Shown here: one piece after another, positions 1,900-31,953 of the stretch
Position numbering within the stretch: the first letter of the stretch is position 1
Layout of the letters: every line of letters starts with the position of its first letter
Origin: Clostridium sp. CAG:465
GTDB taxonomy: Bacteria; Bacillota; Clostridia; TANB77; CAG-465
Assembly (NCBI GenBank): GCA_000433755.1
Contig: FR891275.1
Span: 12,721 to 76,720 of the forward strand
Reading direction: 5' to 3'
Length of the DNA: 64,000 nucleotides
Notes under the pieces: generated by a model
What the model saw: the letters and a program-made list of their open reading frames with translations, nothing else
The model's database searches: none
Told to the model about the DNA's origin: nothing
Made by a program: the position numbers and the translations under genes

Positions 1900-2574
1900 A
1901 TGATAAAAATTGGAATGTGTGATGATAATTTAAATAGTATAAAGATTGCATCAAAATTATTAGAATCAGAAACTATAGAACAAAATTTAGATGCTGAAAT
2001 ATCAATAATTTCAAGCAATCAAAAAGAAATTTATGACGCTATATATGAAGGTAAAATTGATATATTATTTCTAGATATTGATTTTAAAAATAATGGAAAA
2101 AATGGTATAGAATTTGCCAGAGATTTAAGAAAAATAAACAAAAAATTTTATCTTGTCTTTTTATCTGCTCATCAAAGATACTTGCACGTATCTCTTACCA
2201 CAAAAGTTTTTGACTATTTGGTAAAACCTATCAATAGAGAAACACTCAGAGAATTAGTTGCAAGGTTTAAAGATGAATTCGAAACAAATAAATCTATATT
2301 TTTGCACCTAAATAAATGGGAATATGTAAGGACTAACGATATCCTATATATTGAAAAAGATGGAAAGAAATCTATTATATTTACTGAATCTCAAAAATAT
2401 ACAACAAACAAAAACTTAAACAGCTTATTATCTGAACTTCCAAAAAATTTTTTAAGATGTCATAAATCGTACATTTTAAATTCTAATAAAGTATTAAGCA
2501 TTGATAAAAAAGAAGGACAAGCCTTTTTCGGAAAGGATTTTTCTTGTCCTGTTAGTAGCCAATTTGAATTATAG
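1900..2574 (+). CDS. LytTR-family response regulator (AgrA/VirR-like)
   Basis: N-terminal receiver domain (LFLDIDF acidic pocket) and C-terminal LytTR DNA-binding domain, 224 aa. A good RBS precedes it and the kinase gene follows. Confidence 0.85.
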   Translation: MIKIGMCDDNLNSIKIASKLLESETIEQNLDAEISIISSNQKEIYDAIYEGKIDILFLDIDFKNNGKNGIEFARDLRKINKKFYLVFLSAHQRYLHVSLTTKVFDYLVKPINRETLRELVARFKDEFETNKSIFLHLNKWEYVRTNDILYIEKDGKKSIIFTESQKYTTNKNLNSLLSELPKNFLRCHKSYILNSNKVLSIDKKEGQAFFGKDFSCPVSSQFEL

Positions 2575-2606
2575 CATAAATGTATATGAAAAAGGGGATT
2601 TTTATA

Positions 2607-3938
2607 TGGAAATTTTAATAGTTAGAGGTCTAAGCTCAATCCTTGAAGCTGGTCTATGGACCTATTTTATCGTCTCAGTTTCTAAAATAATTTCAAAAGA
2701 AGAGATAAACTTTAGTAAAAAACAAATTATATTGTTCTTTATATCATTAATATTTTTAACTGAATTGCGGTTATTTAATAAGAGATCATTTTCCATTAGT
2801 TAACTGGTTAATAATATATCCTAGTATATTTATTTTATCAATCTTCATTTTAAAGTTAAATGCCGTAAAATCTATTACTATAGTTATAACAAATCTAGTA
2901 ACATTAATTATTACTGAATTAATGTCAGCATTTACATGTATGAGTATTTTTAAAATCGATTCAAATATTTTACTAACTAATTGGGTATATACAACCATTG
3001 CACTTGTTATTCAATACACATTATTTTTTGCAGTTATTAAAATAGCAAATATGATATCAAAAAACAAAAGTGAATTTAAAGATATGTTATCATCTATAAA
3101 CAAAAAAACAGTTATTACAGTACTCTCTATACTTGCTCTTTGTATTTTTCCACAAGTAATTATATATGTAATAAACAAATATAACTATCCTACATACTTT
3201 TTAATACTAAACTCAATCCAAATGATTATTGTATGTATTGTAATATTTAGCTCATTTAAGAATTCTATGGAAAAAGAAAAAGCAAAAAGTGATTTAATGA
3301 CAATAACATTGCATAATAAAACCATGACTGGAATGGTTGATGGAGTAAGAAAATTAAAACATGATTACAATAATATAATGCAAGCTTTAAATGGATATAT
3401 GTCCACAAAACAATATGATAAACTACAAGCACATATTAATTCTGTAATTGGAGAATGTAGTGATATAAATAATTTATCAGTCATTAATCCAAAGATTTTT
3501 AATGATCCTGCAATTTATGGAATAGTTGGCGCAAAATATTTTACTGCAATTGAAAAAGATATAAAATTTGAATTAGATATTTCTACAAATATTGCAAATA
3601 TTAATTTTTCAATGCCTGACCTTTCGATAATACTAGGAATTATACTTGATAATGCTATGGAAGCAACTACAAAACTTGAAAAAGGAAGATATATAAAGCT
3701 TGAAATGAGATTTGATAACAAAAAATGCGCTGATATTATTCGCGTATATAATACTTACGATACAAGCATTAATATTAATACAAAAGATGTATTTAAAAAA
3801 GGTTATTCTAGTAAAGAAGTAAAATCAGGAATAGGTCTTTGGGAAGTCAAAAAATTAATTGATAAATCTGGAAACTCTCAAATATATGCTTCAATTGAAA
3901 AAAATCAATTTATTCAAAATATAATAATAGAAAAATGA
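2607..3938 (+). pseudogene. AgrC/VirS-like GHKL sensor histidine kinase with the N-terminal membrane domain split by a frameshift near 2757-2803 (ORFs 2607..2803 and 2922..3938)
   Basis: H-box HDYNN and a GHKL ATPase region (LDNAMEAT...GIGLWEVKKL). About 7 predicted TM helices are spread over two frames. The frame of 2922 is open back to 2760 but holds no start codon or RBS. The upstream frame has a good RBS at 2595-2603. Confidence 0.6.
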
Positions 3939-4022
3939 TGATATGTTTAAACATTATCATCATTTTTTAATGTAAATATATCTCCATACTTTTATTGTAC
4001 GGAGATATAGAATGTGTAAAAA

Positions 4023-4136
4023 ATTATTTTTGTATTAAGCATCTTGGAGCTTTAGGTTGGTGAATTAATAATACAACACAACTATTAGTTGATGATCTAG
4101 CATATTTTTCGACCATTTTTTTGAAGAATTTTTTCA
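4023..4136 (-). CDS. agrD: AgrD autoinducing-peptide precursor (37 aa: MKKFFKKMVEKYARSSTNSCVVLLIHQPKAPRCLIQK)
   Basis: Small ORF directly downstream of agrB on the same strand with RBS AAGGGGGG. It has an amphipathic leader, a Cys-containing core and a C-terminal tail bearing an HQP..P motif like clostridial AgrD. Confidence 0.7.
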
Positions 4137-4326
4137 TTTCTTTCCCCCCTTATATTTGATATACCGTACAAATTATATTACTAACTTTGCACTATTAGAT
4201 AAACTTTTTAATTTATATTTCATACTATTTCATTTAAAATAAACAATATACTATCGTATATATAATTAAAAAGCAATATAATAAATACAATATATCTAAT
4301 ATTTAAAGAATAATATTTTTATTATA

Positions 4327-4980
4327 CTATTCTTTATTTTCATTATAGTATTCTTTGAATTCATCTGACTCATAACTATGTTTGCATCTTAAAATTTTAT
4401 ACATAAAGTTACTAGTAAAAAAATCAATTAAAAATACTGTGGAGATTACTATTCTTGCGTATTGTTCATTAAATCTTGTTAATACCAATGTTGAAATATA
4501 TATGAACACTATTGAAACAATTGCAGATATTTTATACTTCTTTCTTTTACCTTTATTTAAAATAGGTATTTCTTCCGTATCAGCAGGGACATGTTTATAT
4601 ATTACATATAATGAATAAATAAAAATTAATGCTGACACTATATATAAATAAATTACAGGAACATTAACAAATTTTCCAATAATTACTGGTATAAAGAAAT
4701 ATAGTGAAGTAAAAATAAAACATTCTGTATTTGTTCTTGCGTGTGCTCCTCCAACTAATACTTTATAAAGAATTGTTATTAGCAATACAACACCGACTTG
4801 AGGTAAAATGTGAAAGAATAAACTTACTATAAAAACAAATAGATATTTAGGTACATCTTCTACTATTCTTGTTATCCCAAATAACATTATTTCTCGTTCA
4901 TTTCCTTCTACAGTTTCGCCTCTATACAAGAAATGATCTAAAAGGTAATTGCTAACTTTATCAACCATTAGCCTCACCAC
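4327..4980 (-). CDS. agrB: AgrB accessory gene regulator protein B (AgrD-processing membrane endopeptidase)
   Basis: 217-aa polytopic membrane protein carrying the AgrB catalytic motif GGAHARTNTEC (His and Cys 7 residues apart). Confidence 0.85.
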   Translation of the reverse strand: MVRLMVDKVSNYLLDHFLYRGETVEGNEREIMLFGITRIVEDVPKYLFVFIVSLFFHILPQVGVVLLITILYKVLVGGAHARTNTECFIFTSLYFFIPVIIGKFVNVPVIYLYIVSALIFIYSLYVIYKHVPADTEEIPILNKGKRKKYKISAIVSIVFIYISTLVLTRFNEQYARIVISTVFLIDFFTSNFMYKILRCKHSYESDEFKEYYNENKE

Positions 4981-5165: not shown

Positions 5166-5345
5166 ATGCAAAATGATAATTTAGAAAAAAGTGATAGATT
5201 AGATTTTATTATTAATGACAACTTAAATGAATGTTTACATATAGGAGATAAAGCACCTTTATTTAACGCAAAAACCACTTTTGGAAACATTAAATTAAGT
5301 GATTACGCTGGGAAATGGCTTATACTTTTCTCCCACCCACGGTGA
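5166..5345 (+). pseudogene. 1-Cys peroxiredoxin (Prx6-like), 5' fragment, separated from its 3' part by an inserted element
   Basis: RBS AAAAGGAGG precedes the ATG. Translation ...[33 protein letters not shown] then hits TGA. The conserved DFTPVCTTE region continues out of frame (extra T near 5343) and is cut at about 5355. Confidence 0.7.
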
Positions 5346-5587
5346 TTTTACACCCGAATAAACATACAATTTGGGGAAATATAATAATTAAATAAATCTG
5401 CATATTATTTAGTAAATACCTAAATAAATATAACCACGGGATTTCCCGTGGTATATCTAGATATAAAATAAAAAATATATTACACAAAAATAAAACATAT
5501 ACAGAAATAGTTAATATTTAAAATAACATACTTGTAAGAAATATTAATTTTTTGATATGAAGTAACATTTCACAACAATAAAATTAA

Positions 5588-6199
5588 TTACAAAATATTA
5601 TATTTTTTGTTTATTAATTCAAAAGCTTTTTTCACATCATATTCATCAGTTATACTAATGTTACATTCTTTAATATCCTTTAACATTTCTTTTTTTGTAT
5701 TTTTAATTTCCAAAGCTGACTTTCCATCGAAATTATTCGTATTTTCATATTCGATTAAAGTACCTAGATCCTCAACAATTTGAAAGGCAAATTCTCTACC
5801 ATTTTTTTCATATACAATAACATGATACTTTACTTCTATAAGTTTGTAAAATCCCAAAAATCCAAATAAACTTTCTGCCTTTATTAAATCGTTACAATCC
5901 AAGTTTACTTTTTTTTCTGAAATAACATCTCCATTATTGTCTAATTCTTTATTTTTATATGTTATTTTTCTAATTACTTTTCCATCCAATTTTAGATTTC
6001 TTAATATTACAGAATGTTTTAATAATTTTTGTATATTTTCTTTTTTTATTTCAACATCTAAATTCGTCAAATATATATCATCAATATCACTTTCACGTAT
6101 TTTGGTAAAGCCTTCCTTTTCTAGTTTACAAATTGCATCTTCAATTTTTTCAGTTAACCTTACAGTTATTTCTACTTGTTTCATTTCTAATCCCCCCAT
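5588..6199 (-). CDS. CYTH-like (triphosphate tunnel / class IV adenylate cyclase fold) protein, cargo of the inserted element
   Basis: 203 aa. N-terminal beta-strand EITVR where ExExK is expected, DDIYL (DTYF-like), a central ILRNL...IRKITYK strand pair, and C-terminal LIEYE. Clear paralog of 30003..30581. Confidence 0.5.
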   Translation of the reverse strand: MGGLEMKQVEITVRLTEKIEDAICKLEKEGFTKIRESDIDDIYLTNLDVEIKKENIQKLLKHSVILRNLKLDGKVIRKITYKNKELDNNGDVISEKKVNLDCNDLIKAESLFGFLGFYKLIEVKYHVIVYEKNGREFAFQIVEDLGTLIEYENTNNFDGKSALEIKNTKKEMLKDIKECNISITDEYDVKKAFELINKKYNIL

Positions 6200-6382
6200 A
6201 TATTTCTTTGAGTTTTAGTATATATTAAATTTATAAATTAATCAAATAAAATGAACAAATATATGTAATTATTAAAATATTTAATTTTTCACTTTTTATT
6301 AATTATAACTTAAGGCAAAAGAAATATCCTCACTCTTTTATGCATAAAATTTATTATAAATGATATAAAGGAGTTAAGAGTA

Positions 6383-6595
6383 ATGCAGATTACAAATATA
6401 GAAATACAAAATAAAAAATATGTTCAATTTTATTTAACAAAAGAAGAACTAGAAAAAGATGAAACAAAAAATATAATTGAAAAATACAAAAAAGAAAAAT
6501 ATAACGTAGCTATTTTCTTAACTGGAAAAGAAGATTATTCCGAAGTTCTTAAAAACATAATAAAAAAACAAATGGAAGCAAATAAAGATGTCTAA
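6383..6595 (+). CDS. hypothetical 70-aa protein inside the element, immediately upstream of the recombinase gene
   Basis: ORF with RBS (AAGGAG), Lys/Glu-rich. Its position suggests an accessory or directionality factor, but no recognisable motif. Confidence 0.35.
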   Translation: MQITNIEIQNKKYVQFYLTKEELEKDETKNIIEKYKKEKYNVAIFLTGKEDYSEVLKNIIKKQMEANKDV

Positions 6596-6645
6596 TAATA
6601 TAATTCTAAATAAAGTCAAACAGGAATTTGACAATAAAATAACAA

Positions 6646-8202
6646 TTGTACGGATATTGTAGATTGTCTAGAGATGAAGACAAAGAAAATTATGCAAGTA
6701 TTGAAGAACAAAAACAAATTATCAAAGATTATGCATTAACTCGTAATTGGACTATCTCAGATTTCTATATAGATGACAATGTTTCGGGATATACGTTTAA
6801 CAGACCTTCATTTACAAAAATGATTGAAAAAGTAAAAGAAGGAAAAATAGATGTAGTTATAGCAAAAGATTTATCAAGAATCGGAAGACACAACGGAAGG
6901 GTATTAGTTTTAATAGATGAATTTAAAAATATTCAAAAAAATTTAATATTAGTTTCTGAAATGGGTGGTACTTATGATGTTTTAAACGACAGAGATGATA
7001 CTATTGGAATTACAACATGGTTCAATGAGAGATATGTTAAAGATTGTTCAAGAAAAACTAGAGACCACATGTATTCTAAACAAAAAACTGGAAGATTAAT
7101 TATGGGAAGTTATTATGGATATATAAAAGATCCAGAAGATATAACAAAACTATATGTTGATGAAGAATTACGACCTGTTATAGAATTAATATTTAAGCTT
7201 TATACTGAAAAAAGTTGTGGAAGAAGAAAAATTTGTGACATTTTAAATAGTAAGTATAGCTATCCTACTCCATCTTTATACTATCAAACAAAACATTTAG
7301 AACGTGGTAGAATATATAAACATCCAGTTCAAAAATTATGGTGTACATATATGGTAAAGAATATCTTAGAAAATGATATATATTGTGGTACACTTAGAAC
7401 CCATAAGAAAAAAACTGTATCTATAAGAGGCAAGGTTGTAAAACTTCCAGAGGAGGAACATTTTGTGTTTGAAAATCATCATGAGCCAATTATATCTAAA
7501 GAAACTTTTAACTTAGCACAAGAGATAAGAAAAAGAAAAGTAAATTCAAAAAGTACATCAAGTACAAGAAAAAGAATTTATTACTTTTCAGGACTTTGCA
7601 GATGTGGTGATTGTGGATTTGGAGTAAGTGGAATTACAATAACCAAAAAACATTCTCAAAAAGGCTATGAATGTTCTAGTTATAGAACTTACGGAAAAGC
7701 CAGATGTAAATGCCATGAAATTAAAGAATCAGATATAATTATACATTTTAAAGAATTTTTAAAATTTACAAAAAAGCAATATATTAATGAAATAAATAAA
7801 ATACAATTTAAAACAAAAACTAATGTTAAAACAAATAATAAAGAAAAAATTAAATTTAAGATCGAAGATCTAAATGCTGAACTTAAAGTCCTAATAAATC
7901 AAAAAGTTAAAGATTTAACCAATATTACAAATAATTATCAAAAAAAAATAATTGAAAATACATATAAAGAATTAGAAAAATATAAAACTAATCGTATAGA
8001 ACAATTACAAAAACTATCAGAACAACAACAAGAAGATTTAGACATAAAAAAATTAAAGACGGCAATAGAGTATTTTGATGATATTATAAAATCTAATAAA
8101 CCAAATAGATATATTTTAGAGTGTTTAATTAATAAGATATGGATTTATCACGATAAGAGTGTGAAATTTGAGCTAAAACCAGACATTAAAAAGTTAGTAT
8201 AA
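6646..8202 (+). CDS. large serine recombinase (resolvase/invertase catalytic domain, recombinase domain, zinc ribbon, coiled coil)
   Basis: N-terminal YCRLSRDED carries the Ser nucleophile. SRIGRHNGRVLVLIDEF resolvase motif. Cys cluster CRCGDCGF...CKCH. 518 aa. Confidence 0.9.
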   Translation: MYGYCRLSRDEDKENYASIEEQKQIIKDYALTRNWTISDFYIDDNVSGYTFNRPSFTKMIEKVKEGKIDVVIAKDLSRIGRHNGRVLVLIDEFKNIQKNLILVSEMGGTYDVLNDRDDTIGITTWFNERYVKDCSRKTRDHMYSKQKTGRLIMGSYYGYIKDPEDITKLYVDEELRPVIELIFKLYTEKSCGRRKICDILNSKYSYPTPSLYYQTKHLERGRIYKHPVQKLWCTYMVKNILENDIYCGTLRTHKKKTVSIRGKVVKLPEEEHFVFENHHEPIISKETFNLAQEIRKRKVNSKSTSSTRKRIYYFSGLCRCGDCGFGVSGITITKKHSQKGYECSSYRTYGKARCKCHEIKESDIIIHFKEFLKFTKKQYINEINKIQFKTKTNVKTNNKEKIKFKIEDLNAELKVLINQKVKDLTNITNNYQKKIIENTYKELEKYKTNRIEQLQKLSEQQQEDLDIKKLKTAIEYFDDIIKSNKPNRYILECLINKIWIYHDKSVKFELKPDIKKLV

Positions 8203-8367
8203 TAGAACTTTTTCAAAATAATGTGTAATATATTTAAAAGTTATTTGCAAAAAGTGGCTAAATATGTGAAAAGTCGTTTGAAAAATGTGCATATTTTCCT
8301 CAAAAGTCGTTTGATTTTTGTGAAATATAGAAAAAATAATTAAATAACAATCCCCAAATTGTAAGTA

Positions 8368-27498: not shown

Positions 27499-28878
27499 TT
27501 AAAATTTCTTTTCAAACTTATGCTTTATCCAGCTTGCAATAAGATATGTTGGATAACTTAAAGCTGAAAAAACCATTGCTATTATTATATATACTTGAAT
27601 ATCCTCTAAATTTATTACATTTGTTAACATTTGAATACCAGAAAAACTTATATTTATAACATAAAAAATCATAAGTATCATATTTATCCTTGATTGATTA
27701 TTGCTTACAACATAATCATAATATTCTAAATATTCTTTATGAACCTCGTCATAAAGTTCTGGAAGACCAAATGCTTTTTGCCATAATTTCCAGATATCCA
27801 TTCCGTGTTCTGAGTTAGTAATTTGTCCAAACCAACTTGAATTTGTAAATTGAGTTAAATTTTTCTTTAATTTTTTAACTGCAGTTTTATCTTGTCTCAT
27901 TAAATTCTGCGAAAAATTTATAAGACTGATTCTTTGATATAGCGCTATAAGCACCATATACAAATATCTTTTTTCAAAATTATATGGCATTCTTGTTATA
28001 TCATATTTTTCTTTATCAGATACAAATACAACTCCACTCTCTCTTGAAAATCCAAACATTGAGTATTTCCATCTTGAATAAACGTTATCAAAAAGTCTAT
28101 CACATTCTTCATTAAAAATAGCACTACTTTTACTATGCATAACGTACTGAAATTTATAGAAATCATTTTGCATTTTATAAAAATCTGTATCTTTCTCCCA
28201 ATTATCTACACAAACATATGAATATGTAAACATTTTGTCAAAATACATTTTATCTAAACTTTTGCTTTCATATTCAGAAGTTATATTTCTTATAAATTTA
28301 GGAATATTAACAGTTTTACTATTTTCAACTATTCTATTGGTTGCACTTCCTTTTATTCTAGGTGTTAAATTTCTAAAATAATGGTTAAAATCTAATATTT
28401 TATTAAAGTCAATTAACTCACTTTTCTCATCAATTTGTGTTTTAAAGTCTATGAAACATATACCACCTTCAAAACATATTATTTTAATATCCGATATATC
28501 ATAATTAATAACTTTACCATCGAAATCTGTTATACTACCTTTTTTTATTCTAGCCATATTATATTTAAACGTTATACATGTAGTTTTACTAAGTTCTAAT
28601 GATCTTCTAAAAACTCCTTGCGTTTTAAATTTTTTTATATACTTTTTATCCCAAAATAAAGAAGGAAACAAAAATTTTCTCATATATGGCAAAAAGAAAT
28701 CGTACGACTCTTCATCGCTTTTATATTGATGATATACCATAGTCCACTCTTTTGTTTTCTTTAATATGCTTTCTATAAAATATGGATATTTCTCACTCTC
28801 TATTACAAACGGATATAGAAAATGAGTATACTGATATTTGGCTTTAATATGCATATTACCACCTCTTTTGTTATACAT
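27499..28878 (-). CDS. hypothetical protein: large N-terminal cytoplasmic domain plus two C-terminal TM helices (CorA-like topology)
   Basis: 459 aa. The only hydrophobic segments are in the last ~60 residues. No catalytic motif recognised. Confidence 0.45.
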   Translation of the reverse strand: MYNKRGGNMHIKAKYQYTHFLYPFVIESEKYPYFIESILKKTKEWTMVYHQYKSDEESYDFFLPYMRKFLFPSLFWDKKYIKKFKTQGVFRRSLELSKTTCITFKYNMARIKKGSITDFDGKVINYDISDIKIICFEGGICFIDFKTQIDEKSELIDFNKILDFNHYFRNLTPRIKGSATNRIVENSKTVNIPKFIRNITSEYESKSLDKMYFDKMFTYSYVCVDNWEKDTDFYKMQNDFYKFQYVMHSKSSAIFNEECDRLFDNVYSRWKYSMFGFSRESGVVFVSDKEKYDITRMPYNFEKRYLYMVLIALYQRISLINFSQNLMRQDKTAVKKLKKNLTQFTNSSWFGQITNSEHGMDIWKLWQKAFGLPELYDEVHKEYLEYYDYVVSNNQSRINMILMIFYVINISFSGIQMLTNVINLEDIQVYIIIAMVFSALSYPTYLIASWIKHKFEKKF

Positions 28879-28986: not shown

Positions 28987-29062
28987 CGGGGTATAGCTCA
29001 GTTGGTAGAGCGCGTGGTTTGGGACCATGAGGTCGCACGTTCGAACCGTGTTACTCCGACCA
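28987..29062 (+). tRNA. tRNA-Pro (anticodon TGG) with encoded CCA
   Basis: Manual fold: 7-bp acceptor stem (one G-U), D-arm GCTC/GAGC, anticodon loop TTTGGGA, T-arm GCACG-TTCGAAC-CGTGT, discriminator A + CCA. 76 nt. Confidence 0.85.
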
Positions 29063-29214: not shown

Positions 29215-29300
29215 AAATTCCAGAAAATTACCCTATTTTTCTCTGGAAAGAATTTCTGGAAAATTTTATATTCATTTCTGGAATTTCTGGAAAATCAAAA
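29215..29300. repeat. iteron-like cluster: at least five copies of TTTCTGGAA(A) and its complement TTCCAGAAA, directly upstream of the RepA_N gene
   Basis: Copies at about 29218, 29241, 29254, 29275, 29285, plus a degenerate TTTTCCAAAAA at 29327. The overlapping 93-aa ORF 29098..29379 is probably spurious. Confidence 0.5.
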
Positions 29301-29359: not shown

Positions 29360-29923
29360 ATGGAATTTACCCCATATAAAATTACAGAAACATTAGAATA
29401 TATGTTTTACCAAGTTCCAATGGAATTATTTTTTAATGCTAATTATAAAAATAATTTGTCATTAGAAGCTAAAATGCTATATGGACTTCTACTTAGTCAA
29501 TTAACTTTATCTATAAAAAATAATTGGCAAGATGAAAATGGAGATGTTTATATAATACTTACAAGAGAAAAAGTACAAAAAATGCTTAATATTTCTGATA
29601 AAACTGCTACTAAAGTTTTTAAGCAATTAAATAAATGCAAACTTATTTATGAAAATAAGCAAGGACAAACAAAACTTAATCTTATTTATGTTGGAAAAAT
29701 TAATCATGATGATACTATTCAAAATATGATTCGTAAAAATTTCGATTCTAGAGTCGGAAAAAATACGATTCATGACTCGGAAAATTTACGACCTAACTAT
29801 AATAATAAAAACTATAATAATAGAACTAAAAGCAATCGAAACAATTTTGAGCAAAGAGATTATCAAGAAGGAGCATTATATTATTTATATGCTAATAACT
29901 TGGAACAATTATATGATAATTAA
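29360..29923 (+). CDS. replication initiator A N-terminal-domain (RepA_N) protein, short form
   Basis: YKITETLEYMFYQVPMELF...LSLEAKMLYGLLLSQ...NNWQDENGDVYIILTREKVQKMLNISDKTATKVFKQL matches the RepA_N family. RBS GAAAGGAG. Confidence 0.65.
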   Translation: MEFTPYKITETLEYMFYQVPMELFFNANYKNNLSLEAKMLYGLLLSQLTLSIKNNWQDENGDVYIILTREKVQKMLNISDKTATKVFKQLNKCKLIYENKQGQTKLNLIYVGKINHDDTIQNMIRKNFDSRVGKNTIHDSENLRPNYNNKNYNNRTKSNRNNFEQRDYQEGALYYLYANNLEQLYDN

Positions 29924-30002
29924 GAAATTTTGCCTTTTTTAACAAATTTATTAATTTTTGTGGTATAATAACTTAATAATTTAAAACTAGGAGGATTAAA
30001 AA

Positions 30003-30581
30003 ATGTCTGTAAAAGAGGAAAATGAAATTACAATTAAGATAACTTGTTCAAATGAACAATTAATTAAACACTTAACAGATAAAGGATTTTGCGAGGGAAG
30101 AAAATTTACACTAGATGATTATTATTTAATTCCAAAAGATTTGAAATTAGATGATTTAACAACAAGAGATATTTTATCTAAAGCCGTAATAATTAGATAT
30201 ATTGTCGATGATGGCAAAATAATTCAAAAAATAACATTTAAAAAGAAAGACATTAATGGTAATGGTGAAATTTTGAGTCAAAAAGCAATTAATTGCGATG
30301 TATTGGACTATAAAGCAGGAATAAATTTATTTAATGAACTTGGATATTACCAAATTATGAACATTAAAGAAAGTGATATAATTTATTATAAAGATAAACT
30401 TGAATTAGCAATAAAATTCATTGAAAATAGTAATACTTTAATAGAAATTGAAACTGATGATAATTTTAAGACAATTGTTGAATTAAAACAATTGGTAACT
30501 GAATTAGAAATACCAATTGAAAAAGGTAATTATTTTGTAAAAAAAGCAGAAAATGAATTGAATAAAATTTTAAAAAGATAA
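30003..30581 (+). CDS. CYTH-like protein, paralog of the element-borne 5588..6199 gene
   Basis: 192 aa. EITIKIT N-terminal strand, DDYYL, IIRYIV...IIQKITFK, LIEIETDDNF. Alignable over its whole length with the other copy. Confidence 0.5.
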   Translation: MSVKEENEITIKITCSNEQLIKHLTDKGFCEGRKFTLDDYYLIPKDLKLDDLTTRDILSKAVIIRYIVDDGKIIQKITFKKKDINGNGEILSQKAINCDVLDYKAGINLFNELGYYQIMNIKESDIIYYKDKLELAIKFIENSNTLIEIETDDNFKTIVELKQLVTELEIPIEKGNYFVKKAENELNKILKR

Positions 30582-30749: not shown

Positions 30750-31220
30750 ATGGAAGATATAAGTGTTATGTTAGATGGATATAAATTTAATTATAGAGTA
30801 GCTGCTATAATAAAAAAAGATGGTAAAATTTTGTTACATAAAAGTAAGAAAGATAATTTTTATGCGATACCGGGTGGACGTGTAAAAGTTGGAGAATCAT
30901 CTATTAAAACTTTAAAAAGAGAATTTATAGAAGAAATGGGAAAAGATATTAATGTTAAAGATTTTACTGGATTAGTTGAAAACTTTTTTGAATATAACGG
31001 AAAAAAATATCATGAGATAATGTTTCTTTTCAATGTGGAGTTTGTTGATAATGATTTATATAATGTTGAAAAAATTACAGGATTAGAGGAAAACGGTAAA
31101 ATAGAATTTATATGGAAAAATATTAATGAATTAAAAAAGCTAGATGTGAGACCTGTATTTTTAAAAGAAAAATTGTTAAAAACAGAGGAAATAGGTCATA
31201 TTATAAACAATAAGTTATAA
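30750..31220 (+). CDS. NUDIX hydrolase
   Basis: NUDIX box GGRVKVGESSIKTLKREFIEEMG. Confidence 0.8.
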   Translation: MEDISVMLDGYKFNYRVAAIIKKDGKILLHKSKKDNFYAIPGGRVKVGESSIKTLKREFIEEMGKDINVKDFTGLVENFFEYNGKKYHEIMFLFNVEFVDNDLYNVEKITGLEENGKIEFIWKNINELKKLDVRPVFLKEKLLKTEEIGHIINNKL

Positions 31221-31497
31221 TAAAATATGTATTTTTGTATTTTAATTAAATTAGAATTTTATTATTCAAAACATACATTAATTATTTTTTGAAAATACAC
31301 ATAATTCAAAAACTTTAACTGTTATTTTACAATGTTCTATAGAATAAACAGCGGCTTTATACCTAGTTATTCCCATTAATGACATTTTGCAACAAATACC
31401 ATTTTTGGATAATTTTTATTAATTATATATTTTCTTAGAAATTGATTATTTAAAAAAATGTTAAAGAAATAAAAAATATGTAAGGAGAGTGTATATT

Positions 31498-31953
31498 ATG
31501 AGAGCACCGTTTCAGGTTTTAGTTATACCATATAAAATAATAAATAACGAAATATTATATGGAATTTTTTTAAGATCAGATATGAAAGTTTGGCAAACAA
31601 TATCTGGAGGTGGCGAAGATGATGAATCACCAATAGAAGCAGCAAAAAGAGAAGCAAATGAAGAAGCCGGTATTGATTATAGTGCTAACTATATTAAGCT
31701 GGATTGCACTTGTACTATACCAGTCGAATTTATTACAGGAAAATTCACTTGGGGAAAAGATGTATATGTTTTAAATGAATATACTTTTGGGGTAGATGTA
31801 ACAGATAAAAACATTGTATTATCTGATGAGCATGACGATGTAAAATGGTTAACATATGATGAAGCTAAAAAGGTTTTAGAATGGGATAGTAATATAAGTG
31901 CTTTGTGGGAATTAAACAAGCGCTTGTTAAGAAAATTGGGAAAGGATCTTTAG
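31498..31953 (+). CDS. NUDIX hydrolase (second); ATG at 31498 follows RBS AAGGAGAG
   Basis: NUDIX box GGGEDDESPIEAAKREANEEAGI. Confidence 0.8.
   Translation: MRAPFQVLVIPYKIINNEILYGIFLRSDMKVWQTISGGGEDDESPIEAAKREANEEAGIDYSANYIKLDCTCTIPVEFITGKFTWGKDVYVLNEYTFGVDVTDKNIVLSDEHDDVKWLTYDEAKKVLEWDSNISALWELNKRLLRKLGKDL

Follow-up and report, generated by a model that had tools for sequence, protein, structure and literature searches.

The 64,000-nucleotide stretch analysed here (the window), part of a low-GC Clostridia chromosome from Clostridium sp. CAG:465, carries two genes for divergent proteins of the CYTH/triphosphate-tunnel superfamily, which we call CYTH-A and CYTH-B. CYTH-A (5588-6184, minus strand, 198 residues) is the sole passenger gene of an element that encodes a large serine recombinase, and CYTH-B (30003-30581, plus strand, 192 residues) adjoins a RepA_N replication gene. 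An earlier reading of the window, made from the letters and their open reading frames (the sequence-only reading), had described the two as paralogous, CYTH-like cargo that recurs on mobile elements. Both open reading frames are found where it placed them, at 5588-6199(-) and 30003-30581(+), and the paralogy holds over nearly the full length of the proteins, with 35% identity across 189 residues (BLASTP, E = 1e-30). The length of 203 residues that it gave for copy A needed correction, the open reading frame having been started five codons too early. Because the homologs of CYTH-A are all of 197-198 residues and all begin with MKQ, and because a Shine-Dalgarno-like run, GGGGGGA, lies 8 nt ahead of the ATG at 6184, this codon is most likely the true start. 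No third copy was found in the window with tblastn. The ratio of nonsynonymous to synonymous substitution rates (dN/dS) is 0.09-0.19 for CYTH-A and CYTH-B alike, and both genes are under purifying selection.

The CYTH fold, which the sequence-only reading had proposed from a motif pattern, is established by structure prediction for both proteins. AlphaFold2 models built on the family alignments were confident, with a predicted local distance difference test score (pLDDT) of 96.2 and a predicted template modelling score (pTM) of 0.89 for CYTH-A, and 94.5 and 0.87 for CYTH-B. When either model was compared with the PDB using Foldseek, the top 25 matches were nearly all CYTH or triphosphate tunnel metalloenzyme (TTM) proteins, the best being SaTTM, PH1819, Pfu-838710, class IV cyclase, AtTTM3 and ThTPase, with E-values of 1e-10 to 1e-7 and template modelling scores of 0.6-0.76. 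A family profile made from 106 diverse members likewise matches the sequences of solved CYTH proteins, namely PH1819 (2een, 5.9e-11), Pfu-838710 (1yem, 1.1e-8), SaTTM (7ns8, 1e-6) and the Yersinia class IV cyclase (3n0y, 2.7e-4), and hhalign relates the family to a canonical PF01928 neighbour with a probability of 93%, aligning E-I-T to E-I-E.

Single-sequence and standard-model searches had little to say about these proteins. PF01928, the Pfam CYTH model, matches neither of them even at E-values up to 10, the precomputed Pfam field is empty in all 240 homologs listed, and a phmmer search of PDB sequences with copy A alone returned only noise. The best NCBIfam match is the class IV cyclase model TIGR00318, which covers nearly the full length of both (E = 5e-8 and 1e-5) at 32.9 bits for CYTH-A and 25.3 bits for CYTH-B, both below the cut-off of 57.95. 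An exhaustive profile search gathered 698 clusters (50% identity) at E <= 1e-3 and 359 at E <= 1e-10, and the E-x-T signature described below is present in at least 100 clusters at this level of identity. The two proteins belong to a divergent CYTH/triphosphate-tunnel subfamily that had not been delimited before. It occurs mainly in host-associated, low-GC Clostridia and Bacilli, and it is one that standard domain models miss and that public databases label ‘adenylyl cyclase CyaB’ or ‘hypothetical’.

The best matches in structure and sequence, SaTTM (Saci_0718, 7ns8/7ns9), PH1819 (2een) and Pfu-838710 (1yem), have the same size, eight-stranded tunnel and C-terminal helix as the family. With these archaeal and bacterial single-domain TTMs the family shares the DxY motif, the lysine of TYK, the C-terminal ExE and the first Glu of the N-terminal motif. 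It differs from them in having E-x-T-x-(variable) in place of ExExK (E5-x-T7 in CYTH-A, E8-x-T10 in CYTH-B), in the loss of one RxR arginine, of the KxR strand and of the Asp before the GLG turn, and in the gain of a conserved C-terminal V-K-K-A.

Motif conservation was counted over 110 relatives, each at most ~50% identical to any other, and residues are numbered as in CYTH-A, from E5 to K186. E5 and T7 are each present in 109/110 and D36 in 109/110, Y38 is found in 103/110 and is Phe in the remainder, R62 is present in 110/110, K77, K79, E145 and E147 in 109/110 each, and K186 in 106/110, forming with K185 a conserved Lys pair in the C-terminal ‘plug’ helix. E145 and E147 are also invariant in two family alignments. 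By the motif definitions of PMC8233210, the DxY motif aligns with EDIYY in 2een and with IDTYY in a canonical CYTH protein encoded beside a family member at locus L003, E145/E147 align onto ExE, and Q135 (or Lys) aligns onto the canonical Asp before the GLG turn. The motifs listed in the sequence-only reading are thus real and far from chance, and its central point, an altered ExExK metal-binding motif, is borne out by T7. Two details of it stand only in part. E-x-T is conserved and aligns onto the E-x-E of canonical proteins, but the K/R that was thought to complete it is not, since the canonical Lys position is K, Q, R or E. Of the RxR/K strand pair, one arginine, R62, is kept with L or I at the partner position; the other Arg of the canonical RxR is not, nor is the KxR strand conserved. 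The register of R62 against RxR differs by one residue between two profile alignments.

In canonical tunnel enzymes the ligands of metal 1 are the substrate and the first Glu of ExE, and those of metal 2, the nucleophile-activating ion, are both Glu residues of ExExK together with the second ExE Glu; replacement of these residues by Ala or Asp strongly reduces or impairs activity (PMC4641920). The second ExExK Glu, needed for the water-activating metal 2, is the one replaced in the family, which has also lost the ExExK lysine, one of the RxR arginines, the KxR strand and the canonical Asp. CYTH-A and CYTH-B might then be pseudoenzymes, inactive CYTH-fold sensors or adaptors that bind a phosphate-rich ligand or a partner protein without turnover. 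The effect of acidic-patch substitutions in canonical enzymes (PMC4641920) speaks for this, as does the changed activity of plant TTM1/2, which lack ExExK and ExE (PMC8233210). We nevertheless regard an inactive protein as unlikely: the replacement is an invariant Thr and not a random residue, E5, E145, E147, DxY, R62 and the Lys pairs are invariant, as is typical of a working site, and dN/dS is about 0.1-0.2. The invariant Thr and the other invariant charged residues point to a specialised site, not a decayed one, and the purifying selection at both loci (dN/dS 0.09-0.19) agrees with this. The invariant Glu-to-Thr change affects the metal site on which catalysis depends in all tunnel enzymes characterised so far, and may be informative more generally about the way in which the fold adjusts its chemistry.

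The public annotation of copy B offers a different answer, a class IV adenylate cyclase (CyaB) that makes cyclic AMP. The database protein ‘adenylyl cyclase CyaB [Clostridium sp. CAG:465]’, also recorded from a Christensenellales metagenome-assembled genome, has 100% identity with CYTH-B, and TIGR00318 is the best NCBIfam match. The class IV cyclases (TIGR00318; Yersinia pestis 2fjt/3n0y) have the same fold and length as the family, and in them Ala strictly takes the place of the second ExE Glu, and a small residue that of the first RxR Arg, V61 in the Yersinia enzyme (PMC8233210). A comparable change, of the first RxR Arg to a small or hydrophobic residue, is seen in the family as L/I at position 60 in one of two alignment registers, the other being shifted by one residue. 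However, the cyclase-specific Ala is absent, the corresponding E147 being kept in 109/110 (rule from PMC8233210), ExExK is not intact, its second Glu being lost, and the closest structures are archaeal triphosphatase-type CYTH proteins and not CyaB. The TIGR00318 scores, moreover, lie far under the model's cut-off. We reject the cyclase annotation on the sub-cut-off score and the retained second ExE Glu, and consider synthesis of cyclic AMP highly improbable. Judged by its motifs, the family fits neither the triphosphatase nor the cyclase signature.

What these proteins bind and do we infer from the motif pattern. In the mechanism that we favour, the eight-stranded tunnel would be formed as in other CYTH proteins, with E145, the first Glu of ExE, holding metal 1 and the triphosphate, and with D36 and Y38 of DxY kept as the water-positioning motif. 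The tunnel arginine R62, the K77/K79 pair and the K185/K186 pair of the plug helix would likewise be kept. Missing from the canonical site would be the ExExK lysine, one of the two RxR arginines, the KxR strand and the Asp that is now Q or K, and metal site 2, which normally activates the attacking water, would be remodelled to E5/T7/E147 with its invariant Thr. This combination of retained, remodelled and lost residues leads us to predict that the two-metal site, so remodelled, binds a triphosphate- or nucleotide-type ligand, with altered chemistry or specificity, and that the protein is not a dead one.

The carriers of the two genes differ. A 1-Cys peroxiredoxin gene is split at its FSHP(G/R)DFTPVCTTE codons, and between the halves lie CYTH-A on the minus strand, a small open reading frame, the recombinase gene and terminal inverted repeats. 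The N-terminal peroxiredoxin fragment (5166-5345, plus strand) ends FSHPR-stop, with a +1 frameshift just before the GDFTPVCTTE codons, and the C-terminal part (TPVCTTEF...; 8371-8907, plus strand) corresponds to a gene at locus L001 in which the AhpC-TSA and 1-cysPrx_C domains are recognised. The left 10-nt core TTTACACCCG (attL, 5347-5356) marks the junction of element and peroxiredoxin gene and the right core TTTACCCCCG (attR) lies at 8368-8377, both of the form TTTAC(A/C)CCCG; inside them are the left arm ACAATTTGGGG (5366-5376) and the right arm CCCCAAATTGT (8352-8362) of the terminal inverted repeat. The recombinase (518 residues; 6646-8202, plus strand) has Resolvase (5.5e-24), Recombinase (3.2e-19) and Zn_ribbon_recom (1.8e-09) domains and matches a PHROG integrase family at 4.6e-87. 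Immediately 5′ of it is a 70-residue open reading frame (6383-6595, plus strand) that is kept at 70 or 71 residues in related elements; no match was found for it among Pfam, NCBIfam, PADLOC or PHROGs families, and it is a candidate directionality factor or regulator. CYTH-A itself is followed by a terminator-like hairpin and T run (5433-5452, minus strand; 2 such sites found versus 0.4 expected in shuffles) and is preceded by a weak sigma-70-like promoter match (6217-6245, minus strand), a consensus match only, the total of such sites being not above that in shuffles.

A search with the predicted repaired junction found six metagenome contigs of the same species (L068-L073) that join 5356 to 8368 with a 10-nt overlap and whose flanks show 95-99% identity to the window. 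This makes the 3.0-kb element a discrete insertion that some strains have and others do not, the filled arrangement also being found in other assemblies of the species. The placement of copy A inside a recombinase element, as the sequence-only reading had it, is thus confirmed, with CYTH-A as its only passenger and a presence/absence polymorphism between strains. As a separate observation, the +1 frameshift (FSHPR-stop, 5330-5345) is shared by the filled alleles and the six alleles with an empty site, in the latter falling within a C run; in this species the peroxiredoxin target is a pseudogene or else is translated in some unusual manner.

Relatives of the recombinase number in the hundreds at 76-89% identity. 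In two that were inspected, at 77% and 89%, a 71-residue open reading frame and the recombinase again lie just 5′ of the portion that encodes the peroxiredoxin C terminus. The 77% relative also shows the N-terminal peroxiredoxin fragment, and its cargo, a helix-turn-helix protein, a histidine phosphatase and a ParE toxin, includes no CYTH gene. For the 89% relative the available sequence stops short of the left end of the element; a P-type ATPase is encoded upstream, and no CYTH gene is present within the 3.7 kb visible there. Because these sister elements carry other cargo, CYTH-A is genuine cargo here but one among several interchangeable ones, and the idea that element A is a recurrent CYTH carrier is rejected.

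A by-product of the comparison is a family of small serine-recombinase elements (window 6383-8202, L077 3484-5943, L078 2261-8231) that split the same codon region of the peroxiredoxin gene in different species and bear different cargo. A DUF1540 gene follows the peroxiredoxin gene that these related elements target. In known systems a large serine recombinase is likewise paired with a small accessory factor, as in gin in Bacillus cereus gerE (PMC5595907), skin and SPbeta-type elements. The element of copy A resembles the gin type in being small and non-phage, in having a small open reading frame before the recombinase, in splitting a coding sequence at a short shared core and in belonging to a spore-former, as which the nearby YqfD and YabP genes mark it. 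It differs in its target, which is a peroxiredoxin gene and not a known sporulation gene and is frameshifted even in empty-site strains, and in its CYTH cargo.

Copy B lies at a different kind of site. The order in the window is tRNA-Pro, iteron-like repeats, RepA_N gene, CYTH-B, two NUDIX genes and rpsR-ssb-rpsF. The tRNA-Pro(TGG) gene (28987-29062, plus strand), an integration hot spot, is followed by TTTCTGGAA(A) repeats (29215-29295, plus strand) 5′ of RepA_N, whose iteron-like function is putative; there are four to five copies, with an exact 15-nt direct repeat at 29250-29264 and 29281-29295, and they could be iterons or operators. The RepA_N replication initiator (187 residues; 29360-29923, plus strand) matches PF06970 at 7.5e-22 and a PHROG DnaD-like helicase loader family at 4.5e-26, so that copy B does adjoin a RepA_N gene 3′ of tRNA-Pro, as the sequence-only reading had stated. 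The two NUDIX hydrolase genes 3′ of CYTH-B are at 30750-31220 and 31489-31953 (plus strand). Directly upstream of tRNA-Pro, at 27499-28878 on the minus strand, is a gene for a 459-residue protein that matches PADLOC ‘CorA-like’ models at 9.4e-34 and 1.6e-22 and has no Pfam match.

In strains of the same species CYTH-B is nearly fixed, kept at 99-100% identity amid changing surroundings: RepA_N is split into two open reading frames in some, and the NUDIX genes number one, two or a fragment (L019-L022). One such strain (L021, 1-4969) has a tRNA-Pro island 5′ of RepA_N with a tyrosine integrase, Phage_rep_org_N, a helix-turn-helix protein, Fic and AbiTii, which confirms the site as an integration hot spot. 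Relatives in which the B-type gene is 81-89% identical show a fuller arrangement of tRNA-Pro, RepA_N, CYTH-B, sometimes a small P-loop kinase, TnpV, DUF6664, MobC, relaxase, cargo and tyrosine integrase, the cargo including an OLD-like protein (OLD-family ATPase/nuclease), ASCH and an HpaII restriction enzyme; a further RepA_N or a whole element can follow in tandem. TnpV, MobC, relaxase and integrase genes can all be seen at three related loci, L016, L055 and L074. In a sister copy at L074 RepA_N is followed directly by a TnpV fragment, with no CYTH gene, and CYTH-B is therefore an optional passenger inside the element in this clade.

These relatives resemble the tRNA-integrated integrative mobilizable elements of Firmicutes (RepA_N, TnpV, MobC/NikA-like protein, relaxase, tyrosine integrase), with copy B between RepA_N and TnpV. 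The window differs in holding only RepA_N and CYTH-B of such an element, just as the sister copy differs in lacking the CYTH gene and distant B-type genes differ in following tRNA-Pro with no element genes. TnpV, MobC, relaxase and integrase genes were not found in the window, and since no other element gene was found there, the window holds a remnant of a tRNA-Pro integrative mobilizable element of which RepA_N and CYTH-B are the only surviving genes. A second tRNA-Pro 3′ end was also not found in the window or in ten related loci (L016, L017, L021, L055, L056, L058, L060, L063, L074, L075) at up to 3 mismatches in 22 nt, a weak negative, as the probe was the window's tRNA and the tRNA differs elsewhere. 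CYTH-B remains intact while the flanking RepA_N and TnpV decay. Between the window (29360-30581) and L016 (5363-6579) synonymous divergence (dS) is 0.20 for RepA_N and 0.86 for CYTH-B, a discordance that points to a mosaic history with recombination between the two genes.

That CYTH-B is a purely chromosomal gene beside the hot spot is rejected for the clade at >=81% identity, where it lies between RepA_N and TnpV, which are adjacent in the sister copy. For the clade at 76% such a placement is possible: in two cases the B-type gene comes directly after tRNA-Pro, in the order terminator, promoter, gene, with no RepA_N. B-type genes at 38-76% identity adjoin genes for a methyltransferase, a MazF-like protein, DapF, LemA, ComM, Ham1 and LysR; within the range of 55-76% the neighbours are the same but for the MazF-like gene, and are ordinary chromosomal genes.

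The wider context of the family was surveyed in 45 species-representative genomes, which include 36 A-type loci, and most homologs in them have non-mobile neighbours. Among the nearest neighbours of the A-type genes (four per locus, 115 in all) are NADAR (10), GreA-like proteins (9), AsnB (asparagine synthase, 6), large serine recombinases (3) and NUDIX proteins (3). A serine recombinase thus lies near an A-type gene in 3/36 loci only, and in L034 and L039 the recombinase is split, ~30% identical and outside (3′ of) a conserved gene block. This block of four genes, encoding a Tmk-like kinase, a 551-residue CX3CX2C protein, NADAR and a divergent GreA-like protein, lies 5′ of the A-type CYTH gene in about a dozen species (L034 6755-10606; also L013, L030, L032, L035-L039 and L042-L044), with the order flipped in L044, where it is 3′; it is absent from the window. 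It is ~88% identical at the nucleotide level between genomes with non-aligning flanks. The Tmk-like kinase matches PADLOC PDC-M51B at 8.5e-28 and NADAR matches PDC-M42C at 5.8e-16, the match of the latter to the NCBIfam ‘NADAR family anti-phage protein’ (6e-23) being below cut-off, and the 551-residue protein has no match in Pfam, NCBIfam, PADLOC or PDB sequences. The five-gene block formed with CYTH may point to the pathway of the protein.

Other A-type genes lie between gatCAB and a canonical CYTH gene on one side and rpsT, hpf, ctsR and clpC on the other, or with holA and 2-oxoacid:ferredoxin oxidoreductase genes, or with SpoIVB and an acyl-ACP thioesterase. The first of these arrangements belongs to an oral Clostridiales lineage (L003 5353-6606; also L004-L008 and L033), in which a PF01928 CYTH gene (EIEVR) and an E-x-T CYTH gene stand in tandem between gatCAB and rpsT. 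NUDIX genes stand beside A-type CYTH in 3 species, one of them 50% identical to the second NUDIX gene of the window. The A-type gene either moves about or occupies regions prone to rearrangement, and in most cases no recognisable element surrounds it.

Recurrence on mobile elements, the main proposal of the sequence-only reading, therefore survives for this genome and its near relatives, where both copies are in integrated mobile DNA, but not as a property of the family. Serine recombinases accompany 3/36 A-type loci and B-type genes stand beside chromosomal genes; tblastn searches of 72,556 plasmids and 50,697 phage genomes matched neither copy, and the IMG/VR viral collection holds no relative. 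The sequence-only reading had itself named mostly chromosomal homologs as an outcome that would refute it, and this is largely what is seen, though many of the sites have the look of variable regions. In this genome the gene rides on two elements, but it is not a hallmark cargo of mobile elements. A selfish-element function, which the same reading had suggested, also fails to find support, as sister recombinase elements carry other cargo and PADLOC and PHROGs models match neither CYTH protein; its further suggestion of altered or lost catalysis is plausible.

In a conflict role the CYTH protein would act on a nucleotide or polyphosphate signal, by synthesis, breakdown or sequestration, to serve defence, counter-defence or maintenance of the element. 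Both window copies are in integrated elements with two different backbones, B-type elements carry the OLD-family ATPase/nuclease, HpaII and ASCH, and the island in a nearby position carries Fic and AbiTii. A-type genes often occur with the Tmk-like kinase and NADAR that match PADLOC candidates (PDC-M51B 8.5e-28 and PDC-M42C 5.8e-16), and interspecies homology is confined to the gene itself in differing flanks. CYTH triphosphatases are scattered in jumbo phages (PMC7824862), and BFVD matches show distant CYTH-domain proteins in phages and giant viruses, so that a CYTH fold on a mobile element is not new in principle. We nonetheless hold this role to be doubtful, given the lack of PADLOC, PHROGs, plasmid, phage and IMG/VR matches, the sister elements with the same recombinase and other cargo, the sister mobilizable element with no CYTH gene, the persistence of copy B, intact and nearly fixed in the species after its element decayed, and the non-mobile neighbours of most homologs.

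A bolder combination of the two themes is that E-x-T CYTH proteins are a functionally new class of tunnel enzyme, with chemistry changed by the Thr and exploited in inter-genomic conflict. That chemistry may be a reaction with a single metal, a phosphoryl transfer that is covalent or assisted by the Thr, or the synthesis or cleavage of an unusual nucleotide signal. Were it true, it would explain the cassette-like movement of the gene, its capture by two unrelated elements and its linkage to the Tmk-like kinase, the 551-residue protein, NADAR and the GreA-like protein, but we think it quite unlikely.

The account that we prefer, and consider probable though far from assured, is that the E-x-T proteins are the products of a divergent, phosphohydrolase-like CYTH accessory gene, associated with nucleotide metabolism, whose remodelled site has altered chemistry or specificity and which integrative elements have sometimes captured. 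The gene would belong to variable chromosomal neighbourhoods of gut and oral Clostridia, the hosts of the family, often by nucleotide-handling genes such as those for the Tmk-like kinase, NADAR, NUDIX and Ham1. Integrative elements would pick it up occasionally, copy A as the single cargo of the 3.0-kb element and copy B as the survivor, with RepA_N, of a remnant.

Several points weigh against this account. The tunnel-facing orientation proposed for T7, R62 and K185/K186 rests on alignment to solved CYTH proteins, and R62 is shifted by one position between the two profile alignments. With some five of the canonical tunnel residues gone, the protein could be a binder that lacks catalytic activity. 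Nor are the contexts those of plain housekeeping genes, and among the neighbours the Tmk-like kinase and NADAR are similar to parts of candidate defence systems. Similarity at the nucleotide level between species often ends exactly at the coding sequence, at 84-96% identity with unrelated flanks, and an integrase, recombinase or RepA_N gene lies within 10 kb in 12/45 loci.

Two further gene sets lie to the left of the element that carries copy A. An agr-like quorum-sensing set, with a LytTR response regulator, a histidine kinase and AgrB, occupies 1900-4980 of the window, left of the peroxiredoxin gene, and the sporulation genes YabP and YqfD are at 195-1731.

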